Source: a virus
Taxonomy: Duplodnaviria > Caudoviricetes
Reading direction: 5' to 3' (one strand)
IMG/VR virus record: IMGVR_UViG_3300010356_002264
DNA: 64,000 nucleotides
Part shown: one piece after another, positions 1 through 55,700 of the stretch
Numbering within the stretch: the stretch's first letter is position 1
Layout of the letters: every line of letters starts with the position of its first letter
Position numbers and translations under genes: made by a program
The notes under the pieces: model-generated
Database searches by the model: none
The model's input: the letters and a program-made list of their open reading frames with translations, nothing else
Told to the model about the DNA's origin: nothing

Positions 1-368
1 GTTCCGACCGGAGGGCTGACCAAGCAGCGCGGGCTGAACGACGTTCCCGTGACGTAGCACTCTCCCACCACGGAGATCGCGTGGGCCATGACGGTCCAGT
101 CGTAGCGCAGTCCGGCGAGGAGGACTGTGTTGGGGTCACAAGCGGTGACCACCAGCGTGGAAGGAAATGTGCTCTCGGGCGACACCGGCAGGCCGAGGAA
201 CGGTGCCAGGCGGTTGAGCACGGATGTGCGCAGTACGACGGCGGCATCCTCGACGCCGTCCAGCGCGCGGTAGATGCGGTAGAGGTTCAGCAGGTCCGCA
301 CGCTTGTCCTCATCAGGCTTCGAGGTCGTGTTGAGGTGGAGGGCTTGAATCCAGGATGGCCGGTTCAT
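1..368 (-). CDS. hypothetical protein, runs off the window edge (MNRPSWIQALH...)
   Basis: Open frame from ATG 368 to the edge (absent from the ORF track because it has no stop); promoter motif 30 nt upstream. Confidence 0.7.
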   Translation of the reverse strand, partial: MNRPSWIQALHLNTTSKPDEDKRADLLNLYRIYRALDGVEDAAVVLRTSVLNRLAPFLGLPVSPESTFPSTLVVTACDPNTVLLAGLRYDWTVMAHAISVVGECYVTGTSFSPRCLVSPPVG

Positions 369-397
369 GCCGCCTAGTCGCGTGGACACCAAAGACC

Positions 398-405
398 GGA
401 GCTGA
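398..405 (-). promoter_or_regulatory. TCAGCTCC promoter motif for ATG 368
   Basis: 30-nt offset; CGACTA at -12. Confidence 0.75.
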
Positions 406-420
406 AGGGTATGTATCGAC

Positions 421-1350
421 ATGCGGATCGCGGCCATCGACTGCGGCACCAACACCATCCACCTGATCGTCGCTGACCGAACTCCCGAGGGGACGAGCAT
501 CCTGGAGCACCAGGTCGCGACCCCTCGGCTCGGCCGGGGCCTCGCTCAGACGGGGGTCATCGACTCCCACGCGGCCGAGGCCGCGCTGCGCGCGCTGCAC
601 GCCTTCCACGACCGCGCGGTGGAGCTCGGGGCTGAGCGCCTCGTGGGCGTCGGGACAGAGGCGCTGCGAAGCGCGCGCAACGCCGAGGACCTCCTTGAGT
701 GCGTGTGGGCGCTCGGCATCCCGCTGCGCATCATCACCGGGGAGGAGGAGGCGCGCCTCTCCTTCATCGCGGCCTGTCACGCGGCGGGCATTGAGACGGA
801 GGTGACCCTCATCGACCTGGGGGGAGGTTCGACGGAGGTCGTCATCGGGTCCAAGGGTCGTCCCACCGATTGGGCGAGCTTGCCCTTCGGCTCCACGACG
901 CTCACCGACAGGTTCGCCGAGTCGGGTGACCTGGTGGGCGACGTGCGCGCAGCCGTTGGTAAGGCGATCGCCACGGCTCCTGAGCCGCGAGGGTCGGTCG
1001 TCTTGACGGGAGGGACGGCGAACGCGGTAGTAGGCGCCGTGGTGGCCGACGCGCGCAGGAAGGCTTCCGAGCAGGACCTGACCCACCCAAGCGGGGTCGT
1101 TCAGTGCCCCGCCAGGGCCTTCCTGGCCCTGGTGGAAGCTACCATTGGCCGGAAGGAGGAGGAGCTCGCCGCGCTGCCCTGGGTGGGACCTGAGCGCGCC
1201 AAGGTGCTCCGGGCCGGCGCGATCGCGCTCGACGTCCTCGTTGATCGCCCAACCGTCAAGCAGGTCGTGGTGACACCCCACGGGCTCTGCTGGGGGTTGA
1301 TCCTCGACACGGAGTTCGGCCCGGAGGCCGCTGGGACGGGTCTCGTATGA
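421..1350 (+). CDS. ppx: Ppx/GppA family exopolyphosphatase / pppGpp phosphohydrolase
   Basis: ASKHA motifs AAIDCGTNT, GTEALRSARN, IITGEEEA, IDLGGGSTE. Confidence 0.9.
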   Translation: MRIAAIDCGTNTIHLIVADRTPEGTSILEHQVATPRLGRGLAQTGVIDSHAAEAALRALHAFHDRAVELGAERLVGVGTEALRSARNAEDLLECVWALGIPLRIITGEEEARLSFIAACHAAGIETEVTLIDLGGGSTEVVIGSKGRPTDWASLPFGSTTLTDRFAESGDLVGDVRAAVGKAIATAPEPRGSVVLTGGTANAVVGAVVADARRKASEQDLTHPSGVVQCPARAFLALVEATIGRKEEELAALPWVGPERAKVLRAGAIALDVLVDRPTVKQVVVTPHGLCWGLILDTEFGPEAAGTGLV

Positions 1351-1591
1351 CGGCGCGTAGCTCGTCGAGGCGAACCTTGAGCAAGGACGGAGTCTTGACC
1401 GAGGACGGGGTGCCCGCGAGGATCGCGTAGCGTGTCTCCGCGCGGAGTGCTCGCTCCTCGTTAATGAGCCCCTCCTGGGCCGCTACGCAGAGGTGGTCGA
1501 AGCACAGGGGGTAGGTGTCCTTCTTGTGTGTGAGGGTCGTGACGACCGGCTCCGAACAGGGGACGTACGCGCACCTGGGAGGATTGTCCAT
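1256..1591 (-). CDS. small Cys-containing hypothetical protein
   Basis: CxxxxC...CxxH; start at 1591 supported by the promoter motif; 3' end overlaps ppx. Confidence 0.55.
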   Translation of the reverse strand: MDNPPRCAYVPCSEPVVTTLTHKKDTYPLCFDHLCVAAQEGLINEERALRAETRYAILAGTPSSVKTPSLLKVRLDELRAVIRDPSQRPPGRTPCRGSTPSRARGVSPRPA

Positions 1592-1620
1592 GCGCCTTCC
1601 TGGGTTGTTCGTCACGGTCC

Positions 1621-1637
1621 GGAGCTGACTCAGCTCC
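1621..1637. promoter_or_regulatory. back-to-back TCAGCTCC motifs for ATG 1591(-) and 1667(+)
   Basis: GGAGCTGA-C-TCAGCTCC, both at 30-nt offset. Confidence 0.8.
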
Positions 1638-2996: not shown

Positions 2997-3004
2997 TCAG
3001 CTCC
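2997..3004 (+). promoter_or_regulatory. TCAGCTCC motif for ATG 3034
   Basis: 30-nt offset. Confidence 0.75.
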
Positions 3005-3033
3005 AACCACCTCCCTTTCATCCCTATCCCTGC

Positions 3034-3366
3034 ATGGGAACACAGTTCATCCTGGGTGAGGTCGTCCCGCGCGCGAAGGCCGTGCGGTGCGCGGAGCTCG
3101 CCACGAAGTTCAACCAGGCGACCCCTGGGTCCGAGGTCCTCATGCGCAGCGTCGACGGGCACCTGCTCGTCGGGTTCCACGTGGGCTGGTCGGAGGACAA
3201 GAAGGTCGCGTCCCCCCTCGATCGATACGACGTCATGCCCCGCTGGGAGGCGCTTCGCAAGTACCTCAAGGAAAACGGACTCGACCCTGGCGTCGGTCGC
3301 GACATGACATTCGAGTGCGAGAGGGAGAACAAGATCCCAGCGCTCGACACGGAGACCCCCGCATGA
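3034..3366 (+). CDS. hypothetical protein
   Basis: ORF with promoter motif 30 nt upstream; ATGA overlap with the next gene. Confidence 0.65.
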   Translation: MGTQFILGEVVPRAKAVRCAELATKFNQATPGSEVLMRSVDGHLLVGFHVGWSEDKKVASPLDRYDVMPRWEALRKYLKENGLDPGVGRDMTFECERENKIPALDTETPA

Positions 3367-6459: not shown

Positions 6460-6577
6460 ACCAAAAGAAAAACAGCGATCATCAGCTCCTGCCGCTTACC
6501 TGCCCTCTACTGCGAGTCAGTCCGGCTCGATTCGGACATAGACTCCGCAAAAAAGAACGAGACCTCAAAAAAACTTC

Positions 6578-7876: not shown

Positions 7877-7884
7877 ACAGCTCG
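7877..7884 (+). promoter_or_regulatory. ACAGCTCG motif for ATG 7914
   Basis: 30-nt offset. Confidence 0.65.
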
Positions 7885-7913
7885 GCGGGTAGTTCCTTCC
7901 CAGAGGAACTCCC

Positions 7914-8585
7914 ATGAAGATCTGCAAGGATGGCAAGCGGGTCGTTGTTACGGACCACGCCGCAACACGGTACGCCGCTCGGTACGACCGCGGGCTTGGG
8001 GTCGAGGAGGCCCGCACGAAGCTGGGGGTCCACATCATGAAGTCGAGCGCCAAGCGGCTCGTGGACAAGTCTCCCGCGGGGGACCCCCTCATGCTGCTAC
8101 CGGAACTCGACTGCGTGGTGGTGATCAAGCCAGACAACCGAGAGGGGCACGAGGGGGACCTCGTGGTCCCCACGGTCCTCGACAACCCGGATCGAAAGGT
8201 GAACCGAGGGCCGATGTACGAGAAGCTCGCGGCGATGTCCAACCTGCGCGCGACCCTCCCCGCGCAGGTGCAGGATCCGCCGCCGCCTCAAGCCCCCGAG
8301 GAACCCGAGGAACCAGAGGAACCAGAGGAACCAGAGGAGCCGCCGAAGTCGACACCTAGCGTTGACTGGCTGGAGCTCCAGCAGCTTCGTCGAATGCGTG
8401 ACCAGCTAGATGTCCTGGTCGCCTCGTTGCGGAAGCGTGAGCAGCACATTCGGGTCTCGGTCGCGGGCATCCCGGAGAACCTGAACCTTCAGGGGTGGGC
8501 CGACCGCCACATGACGCTGGCCGTGGAGCTAGGGTCCATCGGGGACGAGGTCGAGCGCTTGCTAGCGCAGACTGCTCGGGCGTAG
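7914..8585 (+). CDS. hypothetical protein with a (PEE)5 linker
   Basis: Promoter motif 30 nt upstream; stop codon lies inside tRNA-Gln. Confidence 0.7.
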   Translation: MKICKDGKRVVVTDHAATRYAARYDRGLGVEEARTKLGVHIMKSSAKRLVDKSPAGDPLMLLPELDCVVVIKPDNREGHEGDLVVPTVLDNPDRKVNRGPMYEKLAAMSNLRATLPAQVQDPPPPQAPEEPEEPEEPEEPEEPPKSTPSVDWLELQQLRRMRDQLDVLVASLRKREQHIRVSVAGIPENLNLQGWADRHMTLAVELGSIGDEVERLLAQTARA

Positions 8586-10618: not shown

Positions 10619-10626
10619 TCAGCTCC
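10619..10626 (+). promoter_or_regulatory. TCAGCTCC motif for ATG 10656
   Basis: 30-nt offset. Confidence 0.75.
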
Positions 10627-10655
10627 AGTACGTCGGGTCGCATCAACGTAGGAGC

Positions 10656-10925
10656 ATGAGTCGACAGCTACTTCCGTTCGCGATGTTCCCTCCCGGAACC
10701 AAGGTCCGCTTCAAGGACGCGCTCGACCGCGCCCCGGACTTCACGGTACCGGCCGGGGCGCTCGGTGTGGTGATGGTGGTGGACGAGGAGTTCGAGCGGA
10801 TCGTCGTCAAGGTGACCTCCCCCGAGGTGCCCGGCCTCACGGACGACCCCGAGTGGAAGGGAGAGGTCATCTTCTGCCTCCCCGAGGGGGACGACCCGGT
10901 CGCGGACCTAGAGGTAGTGGCGTAG
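10656..10925 (+). CDS. small SH3-like hypothetical protein
   Basis: Promoter motif 30 nt upstream; FPPGTKVR pattern. Confidence 0.65.
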   Translation: MSRQLLPFAMFPPGTKVRFKDALDRAPDFTVPAGALGVVMVVDEEFERIVVKVTSPEVPGLTDDPEWKGEVIFCLPEGDDPVADLEVVA

Positions 10926-12825: not shown

Positions 12826-12833
12826 TCAGCTCC
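12826..12833 (+). promoter_or_regulatory. TCAGCTCC motif for ATG 12863
   Basis: 30-nt offset; CGACT at -12. Confidence 0.78.
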
Positions 12834-12862
12834 GGTTCTCGTGAAATTTTCGACTGTCCGTC

Positions 12863-13165
12863 ATGGACGCCAACGAACTCAAGAACCTCGCCGACGGTGT
12901 TAACGAGAGCAAGCGTGCTGAGACGGAGCGCGCGAACCTAGAGAAGGTAAACCAGGTGCTCAGGCGCTGCGAGGATGTGGCCCGCCAGGGAGGCTACAAG
13001 CTAACCTACATGGACTCCTGCCTCAACCCGCAGGTCCTTGGGAAGCTGACGGCCTCGAAGGCGAACAACGGGTTGGGGCTCGTCGTAGTGGACAAGTCGG
13101 ACCGCTCGCGATCGCGCCCCCACTTCAGCTACGAGATCTCCTGGGAGGGGGCTGAGGGTAAATGA
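12863..13165 (+). CDS. hypothetical protein
   Basis: Promoter motif 30 nt upstream. Confidence 0.7.
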   Translation: MDANELKNLADGVNESKRAETERANLEKVNQVLRRCEDVARQGGYKLTYMDSCLNPQVLGKLTASKANNGLGLVVVDKSDRSRSRPHFSYEISWEGAEGK

Positions 13166-17560: not shown

Positions 17561-17568
17561 TCAGCTCC
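17561..17568 (+). promoter_or_regulatory. TCAGCTCC motif for ATG 17598
   Basis: 30-nt offset. Confidence 0.75.
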
Positions 17569-17597
17569 AGGTGCTCACGGAAACAGGAGCGCCTCCC

Positions 17598-18023
17598 ATG
17601 CCCCCCCGACCCCCTCAGACCCTCAGCCCATCGCAGGTCACCATGCTGCGCGCGGCGAGCGCCGGCCGGGGACCGACCGACCACCTGGTGGGTCGAGGGC
17701 GCAGCTTCCATGGTGGGGCCGTGGGGACGCGGTTCTCGCTGACGCGCCGGGGCCTGCTTGACCGGCAGGGGAACATCACCGCGGCCGGCGTGGACCGGCT
17801 CAGGGAGCTCGACCTCTGGGCGCTGCGGGCGCGGGTAGCCGGCCTTGGAGCCGACGACCTCCGCGCGCTGCGCGAGTGCGTCGAGTACGCGCTCCCCCGC
17901 TTCCGTGACGCCTACACCGACCACATCCTGGAGGAAGGCGAGGAGGCCAGGCTGCGTGCCCGTCACGGGCGAGCGGAGCGTCTCCAGGCCATCCTCTTCC
18001 CCCCGAACGCTCCCGTAACCTAG
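17598..18023 (+). CDS. hypothetical protein (winged-helix-like N-terminus)
   Basis: Promoter motif 30 nt upstream; stop codon inside tRNA-Arg. Confidence 0.6.
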   Translation: MPPRPPQTLSPSQVTMLRAASAGRGPTDHLVGRGRSFHGGAVGTRFSLTRRGLLDRQGNITAAGVDRLRELDLWALRARVAGLGADDLRALRECVEYALPRFRDAYTDHILEEGEEARLRARHGRAERLQAILFPPNAPVT

Positions 18024-18881: not shown

Positions 18882-18889
18882 TCAGCTCG
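18882..18889 (+). promoter_or_regulatory. TCAGCTCG motif upstream of the tmRNA-like RNA
   Basis: CGAC at the expected -12 position; no ATG. Confidence 0.6.
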
Positions 18890-18918
18890 GGTCGTGCGGG
18901 TGGTTCCGACCTTCCTGT

Positions 18919-19440
18919 GTAAGACGCAGGGCTTCGGGAAAAACGGTGGTGCTCATCGAGCACACGGGACATCGACCCCGAACGAAGTCAGGCAGGCTTC
19001 TGTTGCTATGTCGGCAACTTGGCACCACCCGCGACGGGTGGAGGACGCGGGTTCAACTCCCGCCAGGGGCCCGATTGGGTGTAAGTCTGCGCGTGACCCT
19101 GACCTGGATGATGACGGTCACTCATCGCCAGGGCAGTGCGCGGTCCGAAGCCCAGACATCTATGGGGTCAACCCCACCATGCGGCCTGCCTCGTGCGGCC
19201 TGTCGGGGAACACCCCACCTTCTATGAGGACCCGTCCCAACGGGAGACCTACGGGACACTGCCAAGTGGATTGGTCCTCACCCTCTTGATGAGAACCCTG
19301 CCTACCCAGGTGGGGGCGAAACCGGCTCCGTTGTCCGCAATGTAAACGACCGAGCAGTTCCGTCTCATCCTCCACACAACTAGAGGGGACGCAGCGACGT
19401 CAGACACCGCGCGTCCTCCCGCGGTCGGAGCGTGCTCCGA
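18919..19440 (+). ncRNA. permuted (two-piece) tmRNA-like RNA, highly divergent; ends approximate
   Basis: GGAC-GCGGG-TTCAACT-CCCGC lies upstream of GACCCTG-ACCTGGATGATGAC; long P2-like pairing 19022-19041 with 19118-19139. Confidence 0.6.
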
Positions 19441-22085: not shown

Positions 22086-22399
22086 TCCCGCAGGACCAGC
22101 AGGTCGAACTGCATGAGGGCCTCCCCTTCATGCAGTTCGACTTCCGTGTAGTTGCCCTCCCGCTCATACCATCCAGATTGTGGGGCGTCCTGCCCCCTTG
22201 CGCGGAACGCCGCGTCGATCACCAGACATAAACTCCGGTACTGCTGGTAGCTCTGTGGGGTGTGCTTGACGCGCACGTCGACGACGTGTCCGTACAGGTC
22301 GTTCTGTCGCGCGACGACGGAGGTGACCTCCAGGCCCTTGGAGGAGGCTTCCGACCGAATGAGGTGCTCAAGATCCGCAGCGGTAAACAGGTTCTTCAT
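22082..22399 (-). CDS. hypothetical protein
   Basis: Start MKNLF fixed by the promoter motif. Confidence 0.65.
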   Translation of the reverse strand: MKNLFTAADLEHLIRSEASSKGLEVTSVVARQNDLYGHVVDVRVKHTPQSYQQYRSLCLVIDAAFRARGQDAPQSGWYEREGNYTEVELHEGEALMQFDLLVLRD

Positions 22400-22428
22400 G
22401 CCTGGTAGTAGATGCGGGCCGTCACTAC

Positions 22429-22436
22429 GGAGCTGA
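22429..22436 (-). promoter_or_regulatory. TCAGCTCC motif for ATG 22399
   Basis: 30-nt offset. Confidence 0.75.
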
Positions 22437-23590: not shown

Positions 23591-24450
23591 GGCTTCGTCT
23601 TGACCGTCAGGACGGTCCCGTCGCGGAATCGCAGCGCCTCACGAGTCGATGGGCGCTTGAAGACCTTCTCGCGGATCTCATGGATCGTCTTGCGCACCAG
23701 GGCGGCCGAGTGCGGCCGAACCGTGGGGTCCGCGCAGAGGAGGTGCGCGATGAGGTCCCGCAGGGGTTCGCAGGTGTCAGACGGAACGACCCCCGTGCAA
23801 GGGTCCCCGCCGAGCATCGCGATCATCACCTTTCCTGCGGACCAGAGATCGGACTCGCCGATCGGTGGCATGCGGGATAGGATCTCTGGCGCGATGTAGC
23901 CAGGCGACCCACCCTTCCCCACGCTGTCCCGCTTGGACCCAGCGACCGACACGGTGAAGTCGGTGAGTACCGCCCCGTGTTGTGGGACGTCGACGATGAG
24001 GTTGTCGGGCTTGACGTCCCCGTGGAAGACTCCGCACTTGTGCAGGTGACCTAGCGCCTCAAGCAGGCGATCCGCGACCCACAGGGTGTGCTCGTCATCT
24101 AGCGGCCGGCGCGCGACGAACGCGGTACGGTCGGCGTTCGGCTGAACGTCGAGGATCTTCCCGAGCGTCTGGCCTGGAGCCCAGGTGAGCACCATGAAGG
24201 GGAACCCTTCGCGGTCGACGACGTAGTCGTGCAGCGCGGGGATCGTGTAGTGGTGAGGGATGCGGGACAGGAGGCTAGCCTCCTGCAAGAAGAGCGTAGC
24301 TTCGTCTCCGTCCTTCCACTTGGACTGCTTGACCGCCACCCGGTGGCCCAGGTGTATGTGTCGCGCCTCGTAGACGCAGCCGAACGAACCCTCTCCGACG
24401 AGTTTCTTGAGGGCGTAGCTCCCCACCTGGAGGTTTGAACTTGCTGGCAT
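23587..24450 (-). CDS. Hanks-type Ser/Thr protein kinase
   Basis: GEGSFGCVY, VAVK, HGDVKPDN, GYIAPE, DLWSAG. Confidence 0.92.
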   Translation of the reverse strand: MPASSNLQVGSYALKKLVGEGSFGCVYEARHIHLGHRVAVKQSKWKDGDEATLFLQEASLLSRIPHHYTIPALHDYVVDREGFPFMVLTWAPGQTLGKILDVQPNADRTAFVARRPLDDEHTLWVADRLLEALGHLHKCGVFHGDVKPDNLIVDVPQHGAVLTDFTVSVAGSKRDSVGKGGSPGYIAPEILSRMPPIGESDLWSAGKVMIAMLGGDPCTGVVPSDTCEPLRDLIAHLLCADPTVRPHSAALVRKTIHEIREKVFKRPSTREALRFRDGTVLTVKTKP

Positions 24451-24479
24451 GCTCACAGCACGAGCAGCCGCGCGCCCCA

Positions 24480-24487
24480 GGAGCTGA
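24480..24487 (-). promoter_or_regulatory. TCAGCTCC motif for kinase ATG 24450
   Basis: 30-nt offset. Confidence 0.75.
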
Positions 24488-25006: not shown

Positions 25007-25043
25007 ATGAGTATGATGCAGGATCGTGGTCACTTTGTCAAGC

Positions 25044-25051
25044 GGAGCTGA
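25044..25051 (-). promoter_or_regulatory. TCAGCTCC motif upstream of tRNA-Met
   Basis: Predicted +1 is 8 nt before the tRNA. Confidence 0.65.
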
Positions 25052-27062: not shown

Positions 27063-27070
27063 TCAGCTCC
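27063..27070 (+). promoter_or_regulatory. TCAGCTCC motif for ATG 27100
   Basis: 30-nt offset; CGACTA at -12. Confidence 0.8.
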
Positions 27071-27099
27071 GGTTAGCTCGGTCCAATCGACTATCCGGC

Positions 27100-27360
27100 A
27101 TGAGCAAGACCTCCAAACCGGCCCGCAAGGGCAACATGAACCTCGGGTACGACGAGAACGACCCCTCTACCTGGCCGCACGACGTGCGCCTGTTCCACGA
27201 GCTTCGCTCGATGCCCGCCGATATGCTTGTGGCGATCGTCCACGGGGACGTCAAGGTGGACGATGTGGCACGCAAGATCCTCGCGGACTGTGGGCTGGAC
27301 GACCAAGGCAAGTGGGTAGGTCCCGACAAGGCGGCCAAGATCCACAAGGTGACACTGTGA
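27100..27360 (+). CDS. hypothetical protein
   Basis: Promoter motif 30 nt upstream. Confidence 0.65.
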   Translation: MSKTSKPARKGNMNLGYDENDPSTWPHDVRLFHELRSMPADMLVAIVHGDVKVDDVARKILADCGLDDQGKWVGPDKAAKIHKVTL

Positions 27361-29880: not shown

Positions 29881-29909
29881 GGTAGGGCGTATACCCGCGT
29901 CGGCGGATT

Positions 29910-29927
29910 CGAGCTGAAGTCAGCTCT
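29910..29927. promoter_or_regulatory. back-to-back motifs for ATG 29880(-) and 29957(+)
   Basis: CGAGCTGA-AG-TCAGCTCT, both at 30-nt offset. Confidence 0.78.
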
Positions 29928-29956
29928 GATCACCGTCGGTGAGGCGACTTCACACT

Positions 29957-30160
29957 ATGACGAACAACGGCTTCACGAAGGGCACCAAGGTGCTGAGCAG
30001 GGACGGCAAGCAGGAGGGGGCGCTTACAGGGGGTCGGCGCCGCTGCCAGCTCGCCGGGTGCAACGGGATCCGAGTCGTGGTGCGGTGGGCGGACAACAAG
30101 GTGACATACCCCTGCACGAAGGGTCTGGAACCGCACGGCGAGGCCCTTCGGATCGCATAG
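29957..30160 (+). CDS. small hypothetical protein
   Basis: Promoter motif 30 nt upstream. Confidence 0.6.
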   Translation: MTNNGFTKGTKVLSRDGKQEGALTGGRRRCQLAGCNGIRVVVRWADNKVTYPCTKGLEPHGEALRIA

Positions 30161-30163
30161 TGA

Positions 30164-30171
30164 TCAGCTCC
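30164..30171 (+). promoter_or_regulatory. TCAGCTCC motif for radical SAM ATG 30201
   Basis: 30-nt offset; CGAC at -12. Confidence 0.78.
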
Positions 30172-30200
30172 GGTATTTGGATCTCTGGCGACAGGACCCC

Positions 30201-41416: not shown

Positions 41417-42441
41417 AGGGCGAAGGGGGGCAGGTGGATGGTGTCCCGCAGGGGGCGCTTGTCGGGCTTGATCTTGCTGTCCGACCATACCAACCGAAAG
41501 CGGTATGGTTTCTCGACGAAGAACATGTGGGAGATGACGGGCGTGGTGTCCACCTGGCAAATGGTCTTGATGGCGAGGTCTACCTGGTCCGGAACCTCGG
41601 CGAACAGCACATGGTACAGCGGGATGCGCTCCTCGTCCTCGGTCCCGATGACCTCACGCAGGTGGGCGTCGAAGCGGCTCGTCCCGACGGTGTCCCGCAG
41701 CGACACGACCACGAACTGCGGGTCCCGAGCGAAGATCCCAAGGTCGCTGGTCGCGTGGTCTGGCTGGACGCGGATCGTGTCGATCGCTGCCTGGGGCAGT
41801 CCGGCTCGACGCATCGCACCCACCAGGCGCGGCGCGTCCGCTTCGGTGACGTAGTAGAGGGGGTTTCGGGTCGGCACGCTCCTCGTCTGGTTCCCCACGA
41901 TGAGGTTGGCGGTGAGGTTGAAGGCCGCCTCATGGTCTCGATGCAGGAAGACCACGACGCTCCCGCACGGGAACACGCGGTGGTCCTGCACGAGCTCCGT
42001 CGCGGACTCGTAGAACAAGGGGGCTTTACGTACCTCCCACCCTGAAGCGTCGACGGGGTGCTTGAGCAGGCGCGCCTCGGAGGGGATGAGGATCGCGGGG
42101 CTCGTCGGGGGGCCGAGCTCGATGGGGATCTCGACCCCGAACCCCTTGAGCACCTCGCCGACTTCCTGGAGCAGGCGGCTCGCGCAGTCCGCGACCCAAC
42201 GGGTCGCCTCCTTGGCCGGGAACGGGGAACCCAGCTTGTGGGACACGGCCAGCAGGCTCTCCCCCGAGAGCCCCCTGCACAGCTCCACCTGCACGCGCTC
42301 CCCGTCGCTCGTGGCGCACAACCCGACGCCCGAGGAGAAGGGGAGCCAGTACACGCCCTGCTCGACTCGCCACTCGGCGATGTCGGGCATCACGGCGCTC
42401 AGCGCCGATCGGTACCAGTCCAGCACGGTCTGCAAGTCCAT
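41413..42441 (-). CDS. hypothetical protein
   Basis: Promoter motif 30 nt upstream. Confidence 0.7.
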   Translation of the reverse strand: MDLQTVLDWYRSALSAVMPDIAEWRVEQGVYWLPFSSGVGLCATSDGERVQVELCRGLSGESLLAVSHKLGSPFPAKEATRWVADCASRLLQEVGEVLKGFGVEIPIELGPPTSPAILIPSEARLLKHPVDASGWEVRKAPLFYESATELVQDHRVFPCGSVVVFLHRDHEAAFNLTANLIVGNQTRSVPTRNPLYYVTEADAPRLVGAMRRAGLPQAAIDTIRVQPDHATSDLGIFARDPQFVVVSLRDTVGTSRFDAHLREVIGTEDEERIPLYHVLFAEVPDQVDLAIKTICQVDTTPVISHMFFVEKPYRFRLVWSDSKIKPDKRPLRDTIHLPPFAL

Positions 42442-42470
42442 GCGGTAGGACCACTCGGTGACGACCCGCA

Positions 42471-42478
42471 GGAGCTGA
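42471..42478 (-). promoter_or_regulatory. TCAGCTCC motif for ATG 42441
   Basis: 30-nt offset. Confidence 0.75.
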
Positions 42479-42517: not shown

Positions 42518-43291
42518 GTGGCGATCCTTTACTGTCGGGCACGAGATGGGGGCTACCGCGTTGACGTCGAGGGGGACAGGTACCTCCTCCACGCTCCGGG
42601 GGGCCCGTTCGTATACACGAGCCGGCGCGCGCTCATCGCGCACGTTACGGGGCACCCCAGGGGGAGGAACTGGACGTTGTCCCGCTACTTCCGGCTGGAG
42701 GACCCGTCCCTCACGGGGGACGACGACCCGTGGGCGCTGCTCGGGGAACCCCCTCCCCGGCCGCGCGCGCCGGGGATCAACCTCGTCGACAAGCACCTCG
42801 ACGTGCGCCGGATCTTCTTCCACGGCTTCCACCCGCAGCTCGCGCAGGGGCGCACGAGTGCCGTCGACCCCGAGGACTCGCTGCAAGATCTCTACGTGGC
42901 GATCCTGTCGCGCAACCGGCTCACGGGCGGCTTCGACCCGAAGCGGTCCACGATGAGTCACTACGTACACCTGGTGTCCCGTACGGTGCTCTACCAAAAC
43001 CGGCGCAAGCAGAATCGCTGGAACCGCGAAGTGTTATCCACCGACGAGAGAAATCCGCAGGAGGAAGTCGCTTCTTCAGCTCCTTCGGCGCTGGACACCT
43101 CGATCGTAGAGGGTCTGGTCCACTTCCTCAAGAACGGGGAGGGGGACGAAGTAGCTCGCGCGGCTGAGCTTCTCGCTCAGGGATGCACGGAGAAGGAGGT
43201 AGCCTCCAAGCTGGGGCTGTCCTCTGGCGACACCAAGCGCCTCGTACTCCGAGTCAGGGAGCGTGCCCGCGAGTGGCTAGAAACCCGATGA
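42518..43291 (+). CDS. sigma70-family (ECF-like) sigma factor with an N-terminal extension
   Basis: Region 2-like DPEDSLQDLYVAIL..FDPKRSTMSHYV; region 4 HTH GCTEKEVASKLGLS. Confidence 0.75.
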   Translation: MAILYCRARDGGYRVDVEGDRYLLHAPGGPFVYTSRRALIAHVTGHPRGRNWTLSRYFRLEDPSLTGDDDPWALLGEPPPRPRAPGINLVDKHLDVRRIFFHGFHPQLAQGRTSAVDPEDSLQDLYVAILSRNRLTGGFDPKRSTMSHYVHLVSRTVLYQNRRKQNRWNREVLSTDERNPQEEVASSAPSALDTSIVEGLVHFLKNGEGDEVARAAELLAQGCTEKEVASKLGLSSGDTKRLVLRVRERAREWLETR

Positions 43292-46434: not shown

Positions 46435-47286
46435 ATGCCCCCCTCCTACTCCCTGCTGACGGGAAACTGCGTCGACGTGCTGCCCCAGCTTCCCGCCGAC
46501 CAGCGCTTCGACCTCGTGCTCACCGACCCGCCGTACCCGGAGATCGACCGCCCCTACGGCCGGATGACCGAGGCCGACTGGCACGCGATGATGCAGACCC
46601 TGCTCCCGCTGTGCCGCGACCGCCTCACCCCCCGGGGATCGATCCTCATGGTCATCCAGCCGAACGCCGAGACGCCGGGGAAGATGCGCCTGTGGGCGCA
46701 CGAGTTCGTCCTGTGGGTGGGCCGGTGGTGGAACCTCGTGCAGGACGTCTACTGGTTCAACCGAGCCGCCATGCCGACGGTCCACTCGCGGCGCACCGTG
46801 GGGCTCCTGCGGTGCGGGATGAAGTGGCTCGTGTGGGTCGGTCCCCCCGACTGCTACCGCGCGCAGGACGAGATCCTGTGGGCTCCCTCCGACCGCATCC
46901 TCCAGGTGTCGCTCGAGGACCGGAGCTTCCAGCGCCGGCCCTCTGGCCACCACGTCGTCCAGGGGCGCACGCGCGAGGCGTTCGACGAGCGCGGGGGGAC
47001 CACGCCCTTCAACTGCTTCTTCGCCGCGAACACGGCCTCGCACCGGTCCTCCGGGGAGGAGGGGCACGGGGCCGGGATCCCCCGGGAGCTCTGCGACCGG
47101 CTCGTCCGCTACCTGTGCCCGCCTGGAGGGATCATTCTCGACCCGTTCTGCGGGATGGTCACCGTGGGGGCGTCGGCGGTCGAGTCGGGCCGCCGGTTCG
47201 TCGGCATCGACAAGGACCCCCAGTGGCGGGAGCCTGGGCTGCGGCTCCTCCGCGAGGCCGACAAGCAGCCCTTCCTGACGGCCTGA
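46435..47286 (+). CDS. DNA methyltransferase (beta class)
   Basis: LTDPPY...ILDPFCG. Confidence 0.88.
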   Translation: MPPSYSLLTGNCVDVLPQLPADQRFDLVLTDPPYPEIDRPYGRMTEADWHAMMQTLLPLCRDRLTPRGSILMVIQPNAETPGKMRLWAHEFVLWVGRWWNLVQDVYWFNRAAMPTVHSRRTVGLLRCGMKWLVWVGPPDCYRAQDEILWAPSDRILQVSLEDRSFQRRPSGHHVVQGRTREAFDERGGTTPFNCFFAANTASHRSSGEEGHGAGIPRELCDRLVRYLCPPGGIILDPFCGMVTVGASAVESGRRFVGIDKDPQWREPGLRLLREADKQPFLTA

Positions 47287-47321
47287 CAGCTCCCGCGCCC
47301 TTCGACCGCGAACCTCCCCGC

Positions 47322-48164
47322 ATGTTGTGGCCTGACCTTCCCCCACGCCCCGACCTGTTCTCGCGCAGCAGGGGCAGCTACCGCGGGGTCGGGTACGTCT
47401 GGGCCTGTCGGGACAAGCCCCTCTGCTGGAGCAGTTCCGCGACGCGGAGCCTGCTAGACGCGGTGCGGGCGCACCGCGAGACGTGCGACCTTTGCCCCGC
47501 GAAGGCGCGCAAGCCCACCGAGGAGGAGGTCCGCAGGCGCGCGGGCACGAACGAGGTACACAAGCGGGTCCCCGTCGTCCCGTACGTGGTGCCCGTGACC
47601 GAGGAGGGGCCTCCCCCCTGGGGGGTCGCCCACCTGCACGAGGCGTCGGACCCGCCCCCCAACGCGCTCGTCCTGTTCCTTCAGCAGCGTACGGCCTACG
47701 CGCTCTCGTGGCTCCAGCAGGTCCACGGGCAGCGCAGGGACCGCAACCGCGTCCTCGCCATCGTGCGCAGCACGCTGCGCGTCGAGTGGGGTGTGGAGGT
47801 CGAGGTGGCCTCCCTGCGCAAGGCCGCACGCCTCGCGCGCACCGAGCGGGTACGTCCGTGGCCCGCGGCGAGCCGAACCATCGTCCTGTCACCCTTGTAC
47901 GAGGTGACGTGGAAGCACCTCCTCCTGCTCACCGTCCAGCTGAACCAGATCCTGACGGACGTCCTGTCCTGGGTGGACACCACCCTCGGCGGCGACTGGG
48001 CCTCAAGACTCCTGATCTACGCGGCCACCGAGGTCGTGATGGGGATCGCCCCGCACACTCCGGTCTGGTGGGGCCTGGTGGCGAGCGCGGGTGGCTTCTT
48101 TCCCCTCGGGTACGTGCCGGGCGCGCGTCGCATGGTGCTGATTGACGCTGCGGTGGACACCTGA
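47322..48164 (+). CDS. hypothetical protein (paralog of the next gene)
   Basis: Start near the promoter motif; similarity to 48142. Confidence 0.6.
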   Translation: MLWPDLPPRPDLFSRSRGSYRGVGYVWACRDKPLCWSSSATRSLLDAVRAHRETCDLCPAKARKPTEEEVRRRAGTNEVHKRVPVVPYVVPVTEEGPPPWGVAHLHEASDPPPNALVLFLQQRTAYALSWLQQVHGQRRDRNRVLAIVRSTLRVEWGVEVEVASLRKAARLARTERVRPWPAASRTIVLSPLYEVTWKHLLLLTVQLNQILTDVLSWVDTTLGGDWASRLLIYAATEVVMGIAPHTPVWWGLVASAGGFFPLGYVPGARRMVLIDAAVDT

Positions 48165-48957: not shown

Positions 48958-50139
48958 CTAAGGGCGCAGGATCGTCGAGCTCACCTTGTAGGGCGAGCAG
49001 TAGACCAGCGGGAACCCGAAGGAGGCGGCGTCCGCGATCCCCTTGAGCTTGCGTGGCATCTCAGTGTCGTCGCAGAGGCGATCGATGAGGAGGAGATTGC
49101 GCCCCATTCCAGCAATCTGTGCGCAGTCGGTTCTGGAGATATGGGGGTACACGTCCGTCCCGAGTGCCACGTCCAGACCCCAACGGGCCACCTTGTCCGC
49201 GTAGCGCCCGTCATCCTCTCCGACCAGCAGGTCACATACCCCGTAGGTAGCGGCAGCGACCTCTTGGATGCGCTCAGGCTCGATGGGACCCTTCTTCGGG
49301 TGGTTGCGCGACAACTGGAGGATGCCGCGCCGGCCCGTGTGGAGGTCCACCTGGGTGCGGTTGTGCAGGTGACCGTAGTGCAGCGGCCGGAACGACCCCG
49401 AGAAGAGGTAGTGGGTCGTGGGGTCGAGCTTGGGTAGCGGGATCCACTCCGTCCCGAACGCAGGCAGGTAGGCATCCTGACCCTCGGGGGGCAGGGAGAC
49501 GACGCGCTTGTAGTGGCCGCGCCACGAGATGGACTCGATCCCCCAGGCGGACCACAGACCCGAGTCGATGATCCCCTCGACGCGCTCACGCGCCCCTAGG
49601 AGGGCACGGAGCACTGCGAGCCCTGCGATCTCGGACTGCTGAGCCCGGTCGCACACCTTCTGCCCGTGCTGCCACAAGATGTGTGCCTCGATGGTGTTAT
49701 GGCCGCTCGGGCCGAACCGGACCACCACGTACGCCTCGTCCCCGTGGTCACGAGTCGAGGTCACGCCGGAGAGCGTGCAGGTCACCGCGGCTCCTACGGG
49801 AAGGCCCCGCGCCTGCTCCTCCAGAGTCGCGCACGAGCTCGCGCGGACCCAAGCGGCCGAGGCCAAGAGGTGCGAGGCCGCGAAGCTCGTTGCCCCACCG
49901 ACTCGAACACCATTCTCCATGCGGGTCTGCATGCGCTGGCCCACGACCTGCGTGACAGCCTCCCGACTGTAGGGAGATCCTGCGTCCATGAGGACGTTCG
50001 TGCAGCCGATCGTTCGCTGGAGGACGGCGGCAGCTTCCGCCCCACCCCCTGCGGCGTAGATGACGGTCGGAACACGCCCGTGTGCTGGGATACAGGCACG
50101 GGAAGAGTCGATCAGCTCTGATAGCGGGGTCTGGTTCAT
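48958..50139 (-). CDS. CinA/PncC-like domain fused to a HIGH-family (NadD-like) nucleotidyltransferase
   Basis: AAGGG..GCTNVLMDAGSPYSREA; LFSGSFRPLHYGHL; VSSTILR. Confidence 0.7.
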   Translation of the reverse strand: MNQTPLSELIDSSRACIPAHGRVPTVIYAAGGGAEAAAVLQRTIGCTNVLMDAGSPYSREAVTQVVGQRMQTRMENGVRVGGATSFAASHLLASAAWVRASSCATLEEQARGLPVGAAVTCTLSGVTSTRDHGDEAYVVVRFGPSGHNTIEAHILWQHGQKVCDRAQQSEIAGLAVLRALLGARERVEGIIDSGLWSAWGIESISWRGHYKRVVSLPPEGQDAYLPAFGTEWIPLPKLDPTTHYLFSGSFRPLHYGHLHNRTQVDLHTGRRGILQLSRNHPKKGPIEPERIQEVAAATYGVCDLLVGEDDGRYADKVARWGLDVALGTDVYPHISRTDCAQIAGMGRNLLLIDRLCDDTEMPRKLKGIADAASFGFPLVYCSPYKVSSTILRP

Positions 50140-50168
50140 GGGGATCAATAGCTCTAACGGGTATCAGT

Positions 50169-50176
50169 GGAGCTGA
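50169..50176 (-). promoter_or_regulatory. TCAGCTCC motif for ATG 50139
   Basis: 30-nt offset. Confidence 0.75.
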
Positions 50177-52053: not shown

Positions 52054-53265
52054 CTAGGGGAAGGCTTCAAGCGTCTTGGGGACGTCGACGTCCTTCATGT
52101 GGGTGTTGGCGATCCCAAGCGCGATGGAGACCGCGTCAGGGGGGAGGCGATGGAACCAGGACCGCATGCCGGCGAAGATGATCTTCTTGTCTCCGGTGAC
52201 CGCCGTCCAGCCGGCCACCTCGATGAGGTCTGAGATGTGGTTGAAGCACGCCACCGCGTCGCGATGGCTGAACGGCGTCTTGAGGACGCGTCCATTCTCC
52301 TTGCGCAGCGCCTTGACGAACTCTCCGAGGCGATCGACGAGCTCGGGACACTTTCCGAGGAGGTCAGGAAAGTGGCGCCGTAGAGCCTCCGCGGTGATGT
52401 TCCATTCAGGGTAGTCGAGGCGATGGAAGCACTCGAAGCGATTGAGCATCGAGATGTCCTGCGGCTGAGCCGTCACGTAGTCGACTGTCCGCTCGCCAGA
52501 TCCGACGGTGTTAGCCGTCGCGATGAACTGGGTCCCGCGGAGGACGGTACGGATCTTCCCGTTCGGCATCGGCACGCGCCCAGAGATGGAGTCGATGATG
52601 GGTCGGAAGATCTCCATCTGGTCGGGGCTCGCGCGGTCCAGGTCCGATAGCAGGATGAGGTAGGGCACACGATCCACGACGCTGCCGTCCGCATCCCGAA
52701 TCACGTACCCGTCGCAGATCGCGCGCAGGACCTCCCCCTCCTCCCACACGGTGGACCCGTTGTGGAAGCTGCGGCACGCGATCTTGGCTGACGAGTCGCT
52801 GTCTGGTCGAAACTCCACGAACAGGCCGGGAATACGACACAGGGCACTCACGAAGTGGATGATCGCATCCTTGCCCGAGCCCGTAGGGCCATAGACCCAC
52901 GTGGTGCGACGCTTGCGGATCGAGGTCAGGATGTGCTGAACGGAGACCTTCGACGCGCCGGTGTCCGGTAAGACGTAGTCTTCTGGCGGCGGAAGGCACG
53001 CAGACAAGGGTACTCGAAGGTCGACAGGGAATTGTATCCCAGCTAGGTTGATGGACAGGGAGCCGCGGACGGCCTTGCGGGGCCTGGTCGGGTCTACCTG
53101 GGATGCAATCTTCGCCGCGAGTCTTGGAGATACCGTCGTGGCGTCTGGGTGCTGCGCGAGGTACTGGCGTACCGTCATCGCATGGCTGTGGATCAGGTGG
53201 TCGTGTAGTGCGTAGTCCTGTGGATAACCGCACTCAAGACACAATACTTGGGACACGTTCGTCAT
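52054..53265 (-). CDS. MoxR/CobS-like AAA+ ATPase with an N-terminal Zn finger
   Basis: GPTGSGK, LLSDLDRA, IATANT, MLNRF. Confidence 0.85.
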   Translation of the reverse strand: MTNVSQVLCLECGYPQDYALHDHLIHSHAMTVRQYLAQHPDATTVSPRLAAKIASQVDPTRPRKAVRGSLSINLAGIQFPVDLRVPLSACLPPPEDYVLPDTGASKVSVQHILTSIRKRRTTWVYGPTGSGKDAIIHFVSALCRIPGLFVEFRPDSDSSAKIACRSFHNGSTVWEEGEVLRAICDGYVIRDADGSVVDRVPYLILLSDLDRASPDQMEIFRPIIDSISGRVPMPNGKIRTVLRGTQFIATANTVGSGERTVDYVTAQPQDISMLNRFECFHRLDYPEWNITAEALRRHFPDLLGKCPELVDRLGEFVKALRKENGRVLKTPFSHRDAVACFNHISDLIEVAGWTAVTGDKKIIFAGMRSWFHRLPPDAVSIALGIANTHMKDVDVPKTLEAFP

Positions 53266-53295
53266 CAGAGGATGAGCTAGGCAACGACGGGAATG

Positions 53296-53303
53296 GGAGC
53301 TGA
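53296..53303 (-). promoter_or_regulatory. TCAGCTCC motif for AAA ATPase ATG 53265
   Basis: 31-nt offset. Confidence 0.65.
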
Positions 53304-53308
53304 GCGGG

Positions 53309-55663
53309 TCAGTGCATGGCGCGCAGTCGGTCCGAGATGACGTTGAGGAGCACGTCTGGAACCTCTGAGAACGTCTTGACGCTCACGCCGGTCGGATGGA
53401 AGAGCTTGATCGTCTTCTCGGTACCCGCTCCGACCCCAACTCCGACGATGAGGATTCCTCGTCGCACGGTCTCCGCGACCTGGGACACGATGACGCTCTC
53501 TGTACCGCGATTAGGACACCCGTCGGTCACGACGAAGATGAAGCGGGTTGTCTCGCGACGCACGGCCATCCACTCTAGGGCCGCCTGGATGCCCTCGGCC
53601 ATAGGGGTCCCTCCGTCCGCCTTGGCGGACGCGAAGCGATGCTGCACGAGGCTGAGCGGCTCCTCGAACCGCTTGTAGGCGAAGACCCGCACCCCCGACC
53701 CCGAGCGGTGACACTCGCTGGCGTTGTCCCCGAGGGGGAGCACGTCTTCTTGGTGGTACTCTTTGTCCTGAAAGCCTATCGCCGCGACGGGGTAACCCAG
53801 GTCGTCGATGGGGTCTACGATCGCTAGCATCGTCTGAACCGCCCGGCTCATCCAGTTCTCCATGGAGAACGACTGGTCCAACACGACGATGGCGGAGAAG
53901 CGAGGGTCGACGCGGTTCATGCGTCGCTTCCAGGGCCGCTGCGGGGGCTCACCGACAGAGATGGCCGCGCCGACGTCGGCGAGCATGCGCTCGGACAGGT
54001 CAACCCCGTTCTCCACCCCGTGGAGGACGCGTGTGCGCCGCATCCCCACGACGAGACGACGCAGCCCCTCCCGAAGCACCTGAGTCTCAGACGCCGCCGT
54101 GTCGCGGAGCTTGCTGATACACTCAATCGCGGCCGATCGGTCCCTCGGCTCCGGCACGACGACCTCATCGCAGCCTGGCGCGTAGGGACGATAAGCCGCC
54201 CCTACGGCAGCTTGCTCCTGCTCCTTCCATACCTCCTGCACGAAGTCGTCAAGGACGTTCGTGACCACCTGGGTAGGCGTCTCGTCTTCTTTGGTTTTCC
54301 CGAGCACCTCGGTGGCGACCTCGAATGAGGGGTCAGCTTCGGCTGGATTGCCCGCATCCGACTCGTCCTTGTCGGGGTCCTGCGGACCTCCTGCACCGGC
54401 CTCCTGCCCGGCTGCATTATCCGCCTCCTCGCCCTTCTCGCCCTTCTCGCCCTTCTCACCCTTCTCGCTCCCCGGCTGTCCCTTCCCCGGCTTCTTGTGG
54501 TTGGACTTCTGGTCTCGCTGCGTCTTGGCGGCGGCGGCAAGGGACTGAATCGCGCCAGCGACCTCATCGAGGTCTACGACGGTGCACCCTTCGGAATCAC
54601 CCTCGCTAGGTTGAACTCGGGTGCTCCAGAGCGTCCCACAACTCCCGCAGGAGCAGCGTGCGCGTCGTGTTCCTCGTGCGCGGTCATCCGCCGTTGATGG
54701 AAGCAGGATGGCGCGCACGTTCGCCGACCCGCACTGTGGGCAGGTGATTGCGCCTGGCACGCCTGGCATACGTATCCCGGCCTCCCCGTCCTCGCCAAGC
54801 GCCTCAGACACGAGGGAGACGAATCGGATCGCGATGCGGAGGGGTTCGTCACAGTCGTCGACCGCGATGGTCCGCATCGACTCCGCCACCTCTCGCAGGC
54901 GGCCGTGCTCGACCATGTGGGCTACGGCGGGCCGCACCTTGCGTACCACCTCGATATACTCGGTCCGCTCGGGCACGTCCACGTCGTCGTGGCCAAGCGC
55001 TATGAGCAGGGAGGTAGCTACCTGGTAGGGGCTGATCAGCTTGTCATGCTCCGGGTTGGCGTGTGCGGTCTCAAGAGCACGCGCCTCACGGTTCCACGAC
55101 CAGCGACGCAGCGCGAAGATGTAGGAGGTCGTGCCAGGGTACTCGCCCATGAGGGCGCGCTCGATCTGAGGGTCGTTGACGACGTTGGTGATGTCGAGGA
55201 GCGCGCGCTCGCAGTACCCCCAGTCAGGGACCTCGTCCCAGCGGTCTACGATGAGGTCCATCACCTCCTTGGTTGTGTACGCATGGCGTCGCGTGTAGAG
55301 GCCGTGCGCGGTCTCATGCAGCGCCCCGCCATCGGACACGACCTCCAGGTCCTGATCCCCCATGGGGGGAAGCGCCGCAAGGACGATGCAGTCCTGCCCC
55401 TGAAGCTCTAGGTTTCGGTGCAGCCGTTGCGTCTCCGCAGCCCACGAGGCCGCCTCCATCTCGCCTGGACGCTTGCCTGGGTTGAGGCGAGCCCAGGCAC
55501 ACACGATCCCAATGATCACGCGGTCCATCCAGGTCGCGCGATGCGCGAACTGGGTCCCCTGAACGTACACGCGTGGGGCCTGGGCCCCCAGGATGCTGTT
55601 GACGAGCGCCTGTGCTCGCGCTCGTCGTCTTGATCCCCCGAAGTGAAGGTCGTTCGCAATCAT
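53309..55663 (-). CDS. CobT-like protein: HEXXH domain, acidic linker, vWA
   Basis: HETAH, VLDQSFSM, GGTP, VVTDG. Confidence 0.85.
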   Translation of the reverse strand: MIANDLHFGGSRRRARAQALVNSILGAQAPRVYVQGTQFAHRATWMDRVIIGIVCAWARLNPGKRPGEMEAASWAAETQRLHRNLELQGQDCIVLAALPPMGDQDLEVVSDGGALHETAHGLYTRRHAYTTKEVMDLIVDRWDEVPDWGYCERALLDITNVVNDPQIERALMGEYPGTTSYIFALRRWSWNREARALETAHANPEHDKLISPYQVATSLLIALGHDDVDVPERTEYIEVVRKVRPAVAHMVEHGRLREVAESMRTIAVDDCDEPLRIAIRFVSLVSEALGEDGEAGIRMPGVPGAITCPQCGSANVRAILLPSTADDRARGTRRARCSCGSCGTLWSTRVQPSEGDSEGCTVVDLDEVAGAIQSLAAAAKTQRDQKSNHKKPGKGQPGSEKGEKGEKGEKGEEADNAAGQEAGAGGPQDPDKDESDAGNPAEADPSFEVATEVLGKTKEDETPTQVVTNVLDDFVQEVWKEQEQAAVGAAYRPYAPGCDEVVVPEPRDRSAAIECISKLRDTAASETQVLREGLRRLVVGMRRTRVLHGVENGVDLSERMLADVGAAISVGEPPQRPWKRRMNRVDPRFSAIVVLDQSFSMENWMSRAVQTMLAIVDPIDDLGYPVAAIGFQDKEYHQEDVLPLGDNASECHRSGSGVRVFAYKRFEEPLSLVQHRFASAKADGGTPMAEGIQAALEWMAVRRETTRFIFVVTDGCPNRGTESVIVSQVAETVRRGILIVGVGVGAGTEKTIKLFHPTGVSVKTFSEVPDVLLNVISDRLRAMH

Positions 55664-55692
55664 GCGGGAAAGCTGGCCAGCAGGCCAAGGTG

Positions 55693-55700
55693 AGAGCTGT
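55693..55700 (-). promoter_or_regulatory. ACAGCTCT motif for ATG 55663
   Basis: 30-nt offset. Confidence 0.65.

Follow-up and report, generated by a model that had tools for sequence, protein, structure and literature searches.

A stringent promoter element at a base-exact distance from start codons suggests a leaderless regulon in an uncultured giant phage

We analyzed a 64,000-nucleotide stretch of DNA, referred to here as the window, from the viral record IMGVR_UViG_3300010356_002264 (Duplodnaviria; Caudoviricetes). It is taken from the minus strand of a 202,778-bp IMG/VR viral contig (G000; G+C content 66%), where it covers bases 132317-196316. In this contig, a conserved 8-mer, TCAGCTCC, recurs at a fixed distance upstream of ATG codons and is followed by a second box, CGACTA. 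We consider it likely that these boxes form a phage-specific class of -35/-10 promoters that gives rise to leaderless mRNAs and is read by a phage-encoded factor.

In the mechanism that we propose, TCAGCTCC (positions -37 to -30) would be the -35 element and CGACTA (-12 to -7) the -10 element. Both would be recognized by the host's core RNA polymerase together with an alternative sigma factor resembling those of the extracytoplasmic function (ECF) type. This sigma factor would most likely be encoded by the phage, and the leading candidate is a 257-amino-acid (aa) protein (42518-43291). With +1 on the A of the ATG, about 45 non-structural genes would be expressed as leaderless mRNAs and translated without a Shine-Dalgarno (SD) sequence. 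Promoters often lie 0-4 nucleotides (nt) after the preceding stop codon, which would make each gene its own minimal transcription unit. Moreover, an SD-less ATG within a read-through transcript would be poorly translated, such that translation of a gene would be tied to initiation at its own promoter. The same promoter would also start transcripts of tRNAs and tRNA-like elements, as well as a few transcripts with short, SD-bearing leaders.

An octamer at a fixed distance from ATG codons

We defined the motif as WCAGCTCB, and counted offsets such that an ATG at +30 has its A as the 30th base after the 8-mer. There are 36 copies of this motif in the window, compared to 18.9 +/- 4.6 in shuffled sequences, and 19 of them have an ATG at +30, where 0.37 would be expected (binomial p 1e-28). 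In the whole 203-kb contig, the same is true of 41 of the 80 copies (0.78 expected; binomial p 2e-60), while ATG counts at the remaining 98 offsets in the range 1-99 are 0-4 each. Thus, the positional enrichment that the initial annotation had proposed to check against controls is far beyond chance in both window and contig. The sites listed in that annotation were also placed correctly: an ATG at +30 follows the 8-mer in 18 of 18 cases, and the two copies described as off by one have the A at 29 (47286, plus strand) and 31 (53303, minus strand). The 19th exact case in the window (29339, minus strand) opens an 11-codon open reading frame (ORF) within a gene, and is probably a chance match.

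The signal also emerges when no motif is specified in advance. When all 6-mers were scanned at all offsets in the contig, CAGCTC at offset 31 ranked first by far (45 of 170 copies; score 105.7). The best unrelated words in the contig score at most 13, and no score in three other huge-phage genomes exceeds 18. Among intergenic 7-mers that are strongly enriched and not derived from tRNAs, TCAGCTC is the most frequent, with 42 of its 57 copies in intergenic regions (16-fold enrichment). Variants of the -35 box with one mismatch are not enriched at +30 (4 of 216), and the box is very stringent. Intergenic 7-mer enrichment and inspection by eye did not reveal any convincing second promoter motif, whether late or early, and sigma70-type consensus promoters are not enriched. 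One candidate for a second motif, GTAGAGT, was rejected, as it mostly reflects the tRNA D-arm.

The logo of the 41 contig sites consists of TCAGCTCC, a weak GGT after it, an unconserved 17-nt spacer and CGACTA. Within the -10 box, C-12 is found in 32 of the sites, G-11 in 29, A-10 in 33 (p 9e-19) and C-9 in 30. CGAC at -12 is present in seven sites of the window, as had been noted (those with the A of the ATG at 368 on the minus strand and at 1667, 12863, 26564, 27100, 29957 and 30201 on the plus strand). Position -1 is always a pyrimidine (C in 34 sites, T in 7), and the A at +1 is located about 6 nt after the -10 box. Two boxes roughly 17 bp apart and centred near -33 and -10 are the arrangement of sigma-70-family promoters, and a -10 element with a CGT/CGA core is typical of the ECF type. 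A position weight matrix (PWM) built from the two boxes only has an ATG at +1 in 25 of its 30 best hits, and the remaining hits among these 30 lie before SD leaders or RNA genes. No high-scoring PWM site has GTG or TTG at +1, and every fixed-distance start is an ATG. The two back-to-back pairs reported in the window (1621 minus with 1630 plus, and 29910 minus with 29920 plus) are indeed present. We also observed that, at 7 sites contig-wide, a TAG directly abuts the -35 box (TAGTCAGCTCC); at 5 of these, it is the stop codon of the upstream gene.

Gene starts predicted to be leaderless

To evaluate the ATGs independently, we used a gene caller that is built on codon usage and is blind to the motif. 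Of the 41 ATGs, 35 are in frame with called genes, and 28 coincide with the caller's own choice of start. An SD-like 4-mer is found upstream of 14% of the promoter-bearing genes, versus 48% of other genes, which bears out the earlier remark that SD sequences are mostly missing at these starts. In 14 of the 41 cases, the box begins within about 4 nt (0-4) of the stop codon of the preceding co-directional gene. Therefore, the intergenic gap is the promoter, and there is no room for a leader or ribosome-binding site (RBS). The -35/-10 spacing puts +1 at the first base of the ATG, so transcripts are expected to start with the initiation codon.

The initial annotation had proposed a -35/-10 promoter whose transcripts start on the A of the ATG. 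The sequence supports this proposal through the bipartite logo, the 17-nt spacer, the pyrimidine at -1 and A at +1, the depletion of SD sequences, the use of the element by RNA genes (see below) and the gaps that contain only a promoter. We regard the promoter and its leaderless character as very likely, with transcription start sites that would lie on the A of each ATG.

Another element in the window (18080-18123, plus strand) has the form TTGACA-18-TACAAG-5-ATG and is located ahead of an ORF at 18121. It resembles a promoter of the housekeeping type, and transcripts from it would likewise be leaderless or nearly so.

A role in transcription

Copies of the element are not restricted to protein-coding genes. 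The copies at 18882 (plus) and 25044 (minus), which were thought to precede RNA genes, hold up in this role: the latter has its predicted +1 at 25014, 8 nt before a tRNA-Met (25006), and the former is followed by tRNA-like Rfam matches at 18996-19105, although these matches are weak. An additional copy at 6482 lies ahead of a tRNA array. The initial annotation also listed three copies before SD-bearing leaders. Among these, the copy at 4517 (plus) is convincing, and the 449-aa plus-strand ORF downstream of it (4566-5915) is coding throughout, whereas those at 37239 (minus) and 55735 have poor -10 boxes and are doubtful. At contig position 34682 (minus strand), the predicted +1 of a further copy lands on the A of AGGAGA, giving a short SD-bearing leader. 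Because the element precedes tRNA genes, tRNA-like elements and SD leaders, it acts in transcription. Other phage genes have a canonical GGAGG as SD, and therefore CGACTA is not an alternative SD and the host's anti-SD sequence is ordinary.

The promoter-bearing genes and their proposed timing

Promoter-bearing genes in the window include a Ser/Thr kinase, two dual-specificity phosphatases, a radical-SAM gene, a PAPS-reductase-like gene, and a VWA gene with a CobS-like AAA partner. Many others are small orphans, several of them interleaved with tRNA clusters. The sites are concentrated at 1-42 kb and 140-203 kb of the contig, with only two in the stretch of head genes between 43 and 140 kb, where portal, protease and terminase genes are found at approximately 86-100 kb. 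Given this near-absence, we interpret the promoters as a non-structural class, probably expressed in the middle of infection. The head and packaging genes and the operon of the 257-aa sigma factor lack the motif and are led by SD sequences, which suggests a cascade. In this cascade, an early sigma operon read by the host's own machinery would come first, followed by the TCAGCTCC class.

A candidate sigma factor

Potential cognate sigma factors are available in the contig: it has three sigma-like genes, of which one, belonging to the Sigma70_r2/ECF family, is inside the window (42518-43291). The 257-aa product of this gene matches the PHROG sigma family phrog_1740 (1e-6) across regions 2-4. Its family comprises 425 representative clusters, and, of 79 members tested, 28 match Sigma70_r2 and 15 match Sigma70_ECF. 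In the protein Atlas, the protein scores 0.97 to Sigma70_r2/ECF clusters, one of which is 86% viral. An AlphaFold2 (AF2) model (predicted local distance difference test score, pLDDT, 88.5) contains an extra beta-rich N-terminal domain of about 80 aa. The top list from Foldseek for this model consists almost only of ECF sigma structures, with E-values that are weak because the model has two domains. The closest relatives, found in Logan, have 83%, 76% and 63% identity. No relatives were retrieved from viral, metagenome or genome contigs when the query was the protein alone or a 4-sequence alignment, while an alignment of 79 sequences retrieved 60 IMG/VR loci with at most 35% identity, many of them on contigs of 200-600 kb.

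The sigma gene heads an operon that ends at a strong terminator (45686-45719). An SD-led operon without the motif would fit a factor that switches the class on, and a dedicated sigma factor that reads the motif is plausible, but this assignment is one that we infer. Elsewhere in the contig, in a block of late genes (103658-104287, minus strand; locus L001), there is a gene whose 209-aa product has sigma region 4 twice in tandem (Sigma70_r4, E 7e-12) but lacks region 2. This protein could be a late activator or a partial sigma factor. The third sigma-like gene (contig 126157-127614) encodes a protein of 485 aa.

Related phages and the occurrence of the code

A second record of the same phage (G001) has 99.994% identity to the contig, with 8 differences in 130,640 bases, so few that footprinting of the motif by single-nucleotide polymorphisms was uninformative. 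Since G001 reaches 4 kb beyond one end of the contig, the phage genome must exceed 203 kb, and CheckV estimates that the contig is 83% complete. By terminase, the nearest public genome is that of an uncultured 485-kb phage (LR745208.1; 49% identity). Terminase similarity points only weakly to this phage and to an Acidobacteriota phage (28% identity), and the attempt to infer a host failed.

An arrangement with the same geometry and another sequence was found in IMGVR_UViG_3300036770_002369 (L015). Its region 11400-13830 contains ATTGTGGCTAAACC-N12-GGATAG-N7-ATG five times, with two of the copies forming a divergent pair. Three of the five copies open ORFs of at least 65 aa, and the other two ORFs are very short. 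This contig also encodes a relative of the 257-aa sigma (31% identity), which hints, in what is a thin sample, that promoter and sigma factor change together.

Apparent fixed-distance hits at two other loci, L036 and L041, were rejected, as both derive from coding repeats. The first of these belongs to a 402-kb IMG/VR contig (L036/L037), whose bases 1-9000 contain long arrays of a 23-residue coding repeat (G..KEWW.NG..HR.DGPA, MORN-like) that mimic a fixed-distance signal. This huge phage also encodes a relative of the 257-aa sigma.

Evidence against the proposed reader, and alternative explanations

It is important to emphasize that several observations weigh against a dedicated phage sigma factor and a leaderless class. 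The gene at 42518 has no co-oriented motif upstream; the sole copy there faces the opposite way, and therefore there is no sign of autoregulation. No clear promoter of any other kind was found for this gene, and nothing ties the motif to one of the three sigma-like genes in particular. The AAC core typical of ECF -35 boxes is absent from TCAGCTCC in the 41-site logo. The 5' coding regions of the leaderless class are neither less structured nor poorer in G than those of other genes. With SD-led genes in the majority and no IF1, IF3 or S21 gene found in the contig, this last result also leaves no support for the earlier suggestion that leaderless mRNAs bypass normal control of initiation.

The distribution of the code adds two further difficulties. 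A de novo search for a fixed-distance code in G007 (205 kb), G008 (297 kb) and LR745208.1 found none, although each of these genomes encodes a relative of the 257-aa sigma with 25-31% identity. The sigma family alone therefore does not imply the code. In addition, scans for the exact pattern revealed clusters of it on three short, GC-rich contigs of 1.1-4.5 kb (L170, L155 and L290; Table 1), where TCAGCTCC-N17-CGAC-type promoters lie exactly 30 nt before the ATGs of orphan ORFs. No DNA or protein similarity of these contigs to the 203-kb contig or to each other was detected. They may be unsampled parts or kin of this phage, or a sign that the reader is a host factor.

This second possibility leads to an alternative in which the promoter is real and leaderless, but is read by an alternative (ECF-type) sigma factor of the host that the phage exploits. 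We retain this explanation, which we think unlikely, mainly because of the three short contigs, which share the code without detectable homology and one of which is binned with a Syntrophaceae metagenome-assembled genome (MAG). The lack of an autoregulatory copy at the phage sigma gene, and the presence of sigma relatives in phages without the code, are also in its favor. However, a strict pattern scan of one genome per species for 185,579 species gave only 80 isolated hits, dispersed over the genomes without clustering in any of them. The short contigs could come from the unsampled part of this phage's genome or from its relatives. Finally, the three sigma-like genes of the phage require promoters to act on, and the enriched intergenic words included no other motif that stood out as a candidate promoter.

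Another explanation, which strikes us as quite improbable, is that TCAGCTCC is the site of a phage activator that appropriates sigma in the manner of MotA, or serves as a promoter for an RNA polymerase that the phage encodes in a part of its genome not covered by the contig. The box is at about -33, where the T4 MotA box lies, the contig is incomplete, as noted above, and the 209-aa protein with two region-4 domains could be such a factor. However, we rejected T4 MotA/AsiA-type appropriation as a parallel, because it combines a box near -30 with a housekeeping TAnnnT -10 element, whereas CGACTA is not a housekeeping -10, which appropriation would retain, and lacks the pattern of T at -12 and -7. 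As for a phage polymerase, a bipartite promoter with a 17-nt spacer is unlike the known promoters of single-subunit or phiKZ-type enzymes, and no RNA polymerase gene of the beta or T7 type was found in the 203-kb contig.

It is very improbable that the motif instead serves as an operator, bound by a repressor or another regulator, or that it belongs to a 37-nt 5' untranslated region and acts there as a translation signal at the RNA level, with the true promoters elsewhere. The palindromic AGCT core, the inverted pairs at four loci and the position of CGACTA where an SD would be are compatible with this idea, but the gaps between paired boxes are 1, 2, 3 and 4 nt, so that there is no fixed dyad for a dimer, and single copies predominate; a nucleotide-fixed distance to the ATG is explained by selection of a start site and not by operator binding; a separate promoter would, in the 14 cases with an abutting upstream gene, fit only inside coding sequence; and a translation signal would not be expected before untranslated tRNA and tRNA-like genes, or in a phage whose other genes use GGAGG.

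Comparison with known systems

Our preferred interpretation, a phage-specific promoter class that gives leaderless mRNAs, has its closest parallel in two large phages of Thermus, phiYS40 and Lalka27a, whose mapped transcripts mostly start at the A or G of the initiator codon (bioRxiv 10.64898/2026.04.20.719267; PMC3594737). In these phages too, the position of the promoter fixes the start codon as +1, but their start sites were measured, whereas those described here are predicted from the sequence. Their promoters have -10-type elements that are used by the host polymerase, which is modified by phage factors for the late class (bioRxiv 10.64898/2026.04.20.719267). In contrast, the class in our contig combines an invariant 8-bp -35 box with CGACTA, uses only ATG, and would likely depend on an ECF-like phage sigma. 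Altered levels of the initiation factors (IFs) IF2 and IF3 have also been reported for phiYS40 (PMC3594737), whereas no IF gene was found in our contig.

Sigma factors and translation genes are known from huge phages. Phage-encoded sigma factors, such as the ECF-like gp36 of phiEco32, gp28 of SPO1 and gp55 of T4, retarget the host's core polymerase to a private consensus and thereby define a temporal class. Their consensus sequences differ from the one described here, and several have no -35 box. To our knowledge, none of these three systems is coupled to leaderless starts. The link between sigma factor and motif is inferred in our case, in contrast to these systems.

Bacterial ECF promoters offer a second point of comparison, as predicted ECF promoters include leaderless ones, among which starts at an A preceded by a pyrimidine (-1) are over-represented (Todor et al. 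bioRxiv 10.1101/2020.06.23.168245). The element resembles promoters of ECF (group IV) sigma factors in its two-box structure, its spacer length (about 16-17 nt), the CG within its -10 box (CGAC/CGTC type) and the succession of a pyrimidine at -1 and a purine at +1. It differs in that TCAGCTCC has no AAC core and the sigma gene is not behind its own promoter. Moreover, the regulon has about 45 promoters in 203 kb instead of a handful, and the sigma factor has the additional N-terminal domain.

Deinococcus-Thermus and Actinobacteria, including mycobacteria, commonly have leaderless genes whose -10 boxes adjoin the ORFs (PMC12340547; PMC4633059). In those organisms, as is proposed here, leaderless mRNA results from a promoter element that lies a short, constant distance before the start codon, but they use the -10 of the housekeeping sigma in cellular genomes, whereas this is a private, non-housekeeping consensus in a phage. 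Finally, the start-associated sequences (SAS) of mycobacteriophages are a conserved motif that lies a few bases upstream of the start codon and includes the RBS. We rejected these as a model, since our motif is 30 nt upstream, includes no RBS and also precedes RNA genes.

The strategy itself is therefore known in phages. What is new is the combination and its regularity: a private, stringent -35/-10 pair that is wired base-exactly to about 45 start codons. In practical terms, the rule defines, to the base, the start codons of dozens of orphan genes of an uncultured giant phage and the transcription units to which they belong, and it corrects annotation errors made by gene callers that rely on SD sequences. 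It also yields a compact, orthogonal pair of a promoter and a putative sigma factor. If the start sites are confirmed, this would be among the most regular leaderless regulons known outside of Thermus phages, and ECF-like sigma factors encoded by phages, which are common in huge phages, would be linked to a concrete promoter consensus.

We can also speculate, with little expectation of being right, that the class serves as a private channel. A phage sigma with an unusually stringent specificity for the 8-bp -35 box would firmly couple the start of transcription to that of translation in a quarter to a third of the genes. Together with the kinase, the phosphatases and the large set of tRNAs and release factors, it would shift the cell to leaderless initiation, and the class would be translated when SD-dependent translation of the host is impaired. 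In that event, the unrelated contigs with the same code would point to a wider group of phages, as yet undescribed, that have this channel in common.

Sites in the window and neighboring features

The sites in the window, the candidate sigma gene and the three short contigs are listed in Table 1.

Table 1. Copies of the promoter element in the window, the candidate reader, and short contigs with the same code.
Location	Strand	Element	A of ATG or predicted +1	Associated gene or remark
366..405	-	TCAGCTCC-N17-CGACTA-N6 + ATG	368	PWM score 24.5
1589..1628	-	promoter + ATG; weak -10	1591	half of divergent pair; 111-aa ORF with low coding score
1630..1669	+	promoter + ATG	1667	PAPS-reductase-like gene; half of divergent pair
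2997..3036	+	promoter + ATG	3034	-35 begins 1 nt after upstream stop codon
4517..4568	+	same -35 box	4554	11-nt leader with GGAGG; ATG at 4566
6482..6519	+	promoter; -10 CTACTG	6519	non-ATG +1; upstream of tRNA array
7877..7916	+	promoter + ATG	7914	within tRNA region
10619..10658	+	promoter + ATG	10656	followed by tRNA genes
12826..12865	+	promoter + ATG; -10 CGACTG	12863	
17561..17600	+	promoter + ATG; weak -10	17598	
18882..18919	+	promoter	18919	non-ATG +1; before tRNA-like stretch and tRNA-Arg
22397..22436	-	promoter + ATG; -10 CTACTA	22399	
24448..24487	-	promoter + ATG	24450	Ser/Thr protein kinase gene
25014..25051	-	-35 box	25014	8-nt leader to tRNA-Met; overlapped by sigma70-like TTGACA-17-CATCAT
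26527..26566	+	promoter + ATG	26564	dual-specificity phosphatase gene
27063..27102	+	promoter + ATG; near-consensus	27100	begins 1 nt after upstream stop
29878..29917	-	promoter + ATG	29880	second phosphatase gene; half of divergent pair
29920..29959	+	promoter + ATG	29957	67-aa ORF; half of divergent pair
30164..30203	+	promoter + ATG	30201	radical-SAM gene
42439..42478	-	promoter + ATG	42441	divergent from sigma gene
42518..43291	+	candidate reader		gene for divergent 257-aa sigma of ECF type; GTG start with SD; heads operon
47286..47324	+	off-by-one copy (A at 29); no recognizable -10		adjoins upstream stop; uncertain
50137..50176	-	promoter + ATG	50139	
53263..53303	-	off-by-one copy (A at 31)		before AAA/CobS-like gene; predicted 1-nt leader
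55661..55700	-	promoter + ATG	55663	784-aa VWA-domain gene
L170 (Ga0116143_10021711)		code at 3/4 CAGCTC copies		
L155 (Ga0265338_10321604)		code at 2/3 CAGCTC copies		
L290 (CAZMBE010000072.1)		code at 4/8 CAGCTC copies		binned with Syntrophaceae MAG

The long minus-strand ORF at 3701-4822 is coding only below approximately 4520. Its longest-ORF start is therefore wrong, and this gene and the 449-aa plus-strand gene (4566-5915) diverge around the promoter at 4517.

There are 43 tRNA genes in the window. The tRNA region (6880-20985) is punctuated by the promoters at 7877, 10619, 12826, 17561 and 18882, each of which is followed by a small leaderless ORF or an RNA and then a tRNA cluster. In view of this interleaving, the tRNAs may be co-transcribed with the promoter class. 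In front of the tRNA-Met (25013-25051, minus strand), a copy of TCAGCTCC is immediately followed by a good sigma70-type promoter, whose start would equal the 5' end of the mature tRNA. Two types of promoter may therefore be stacked before this gene.

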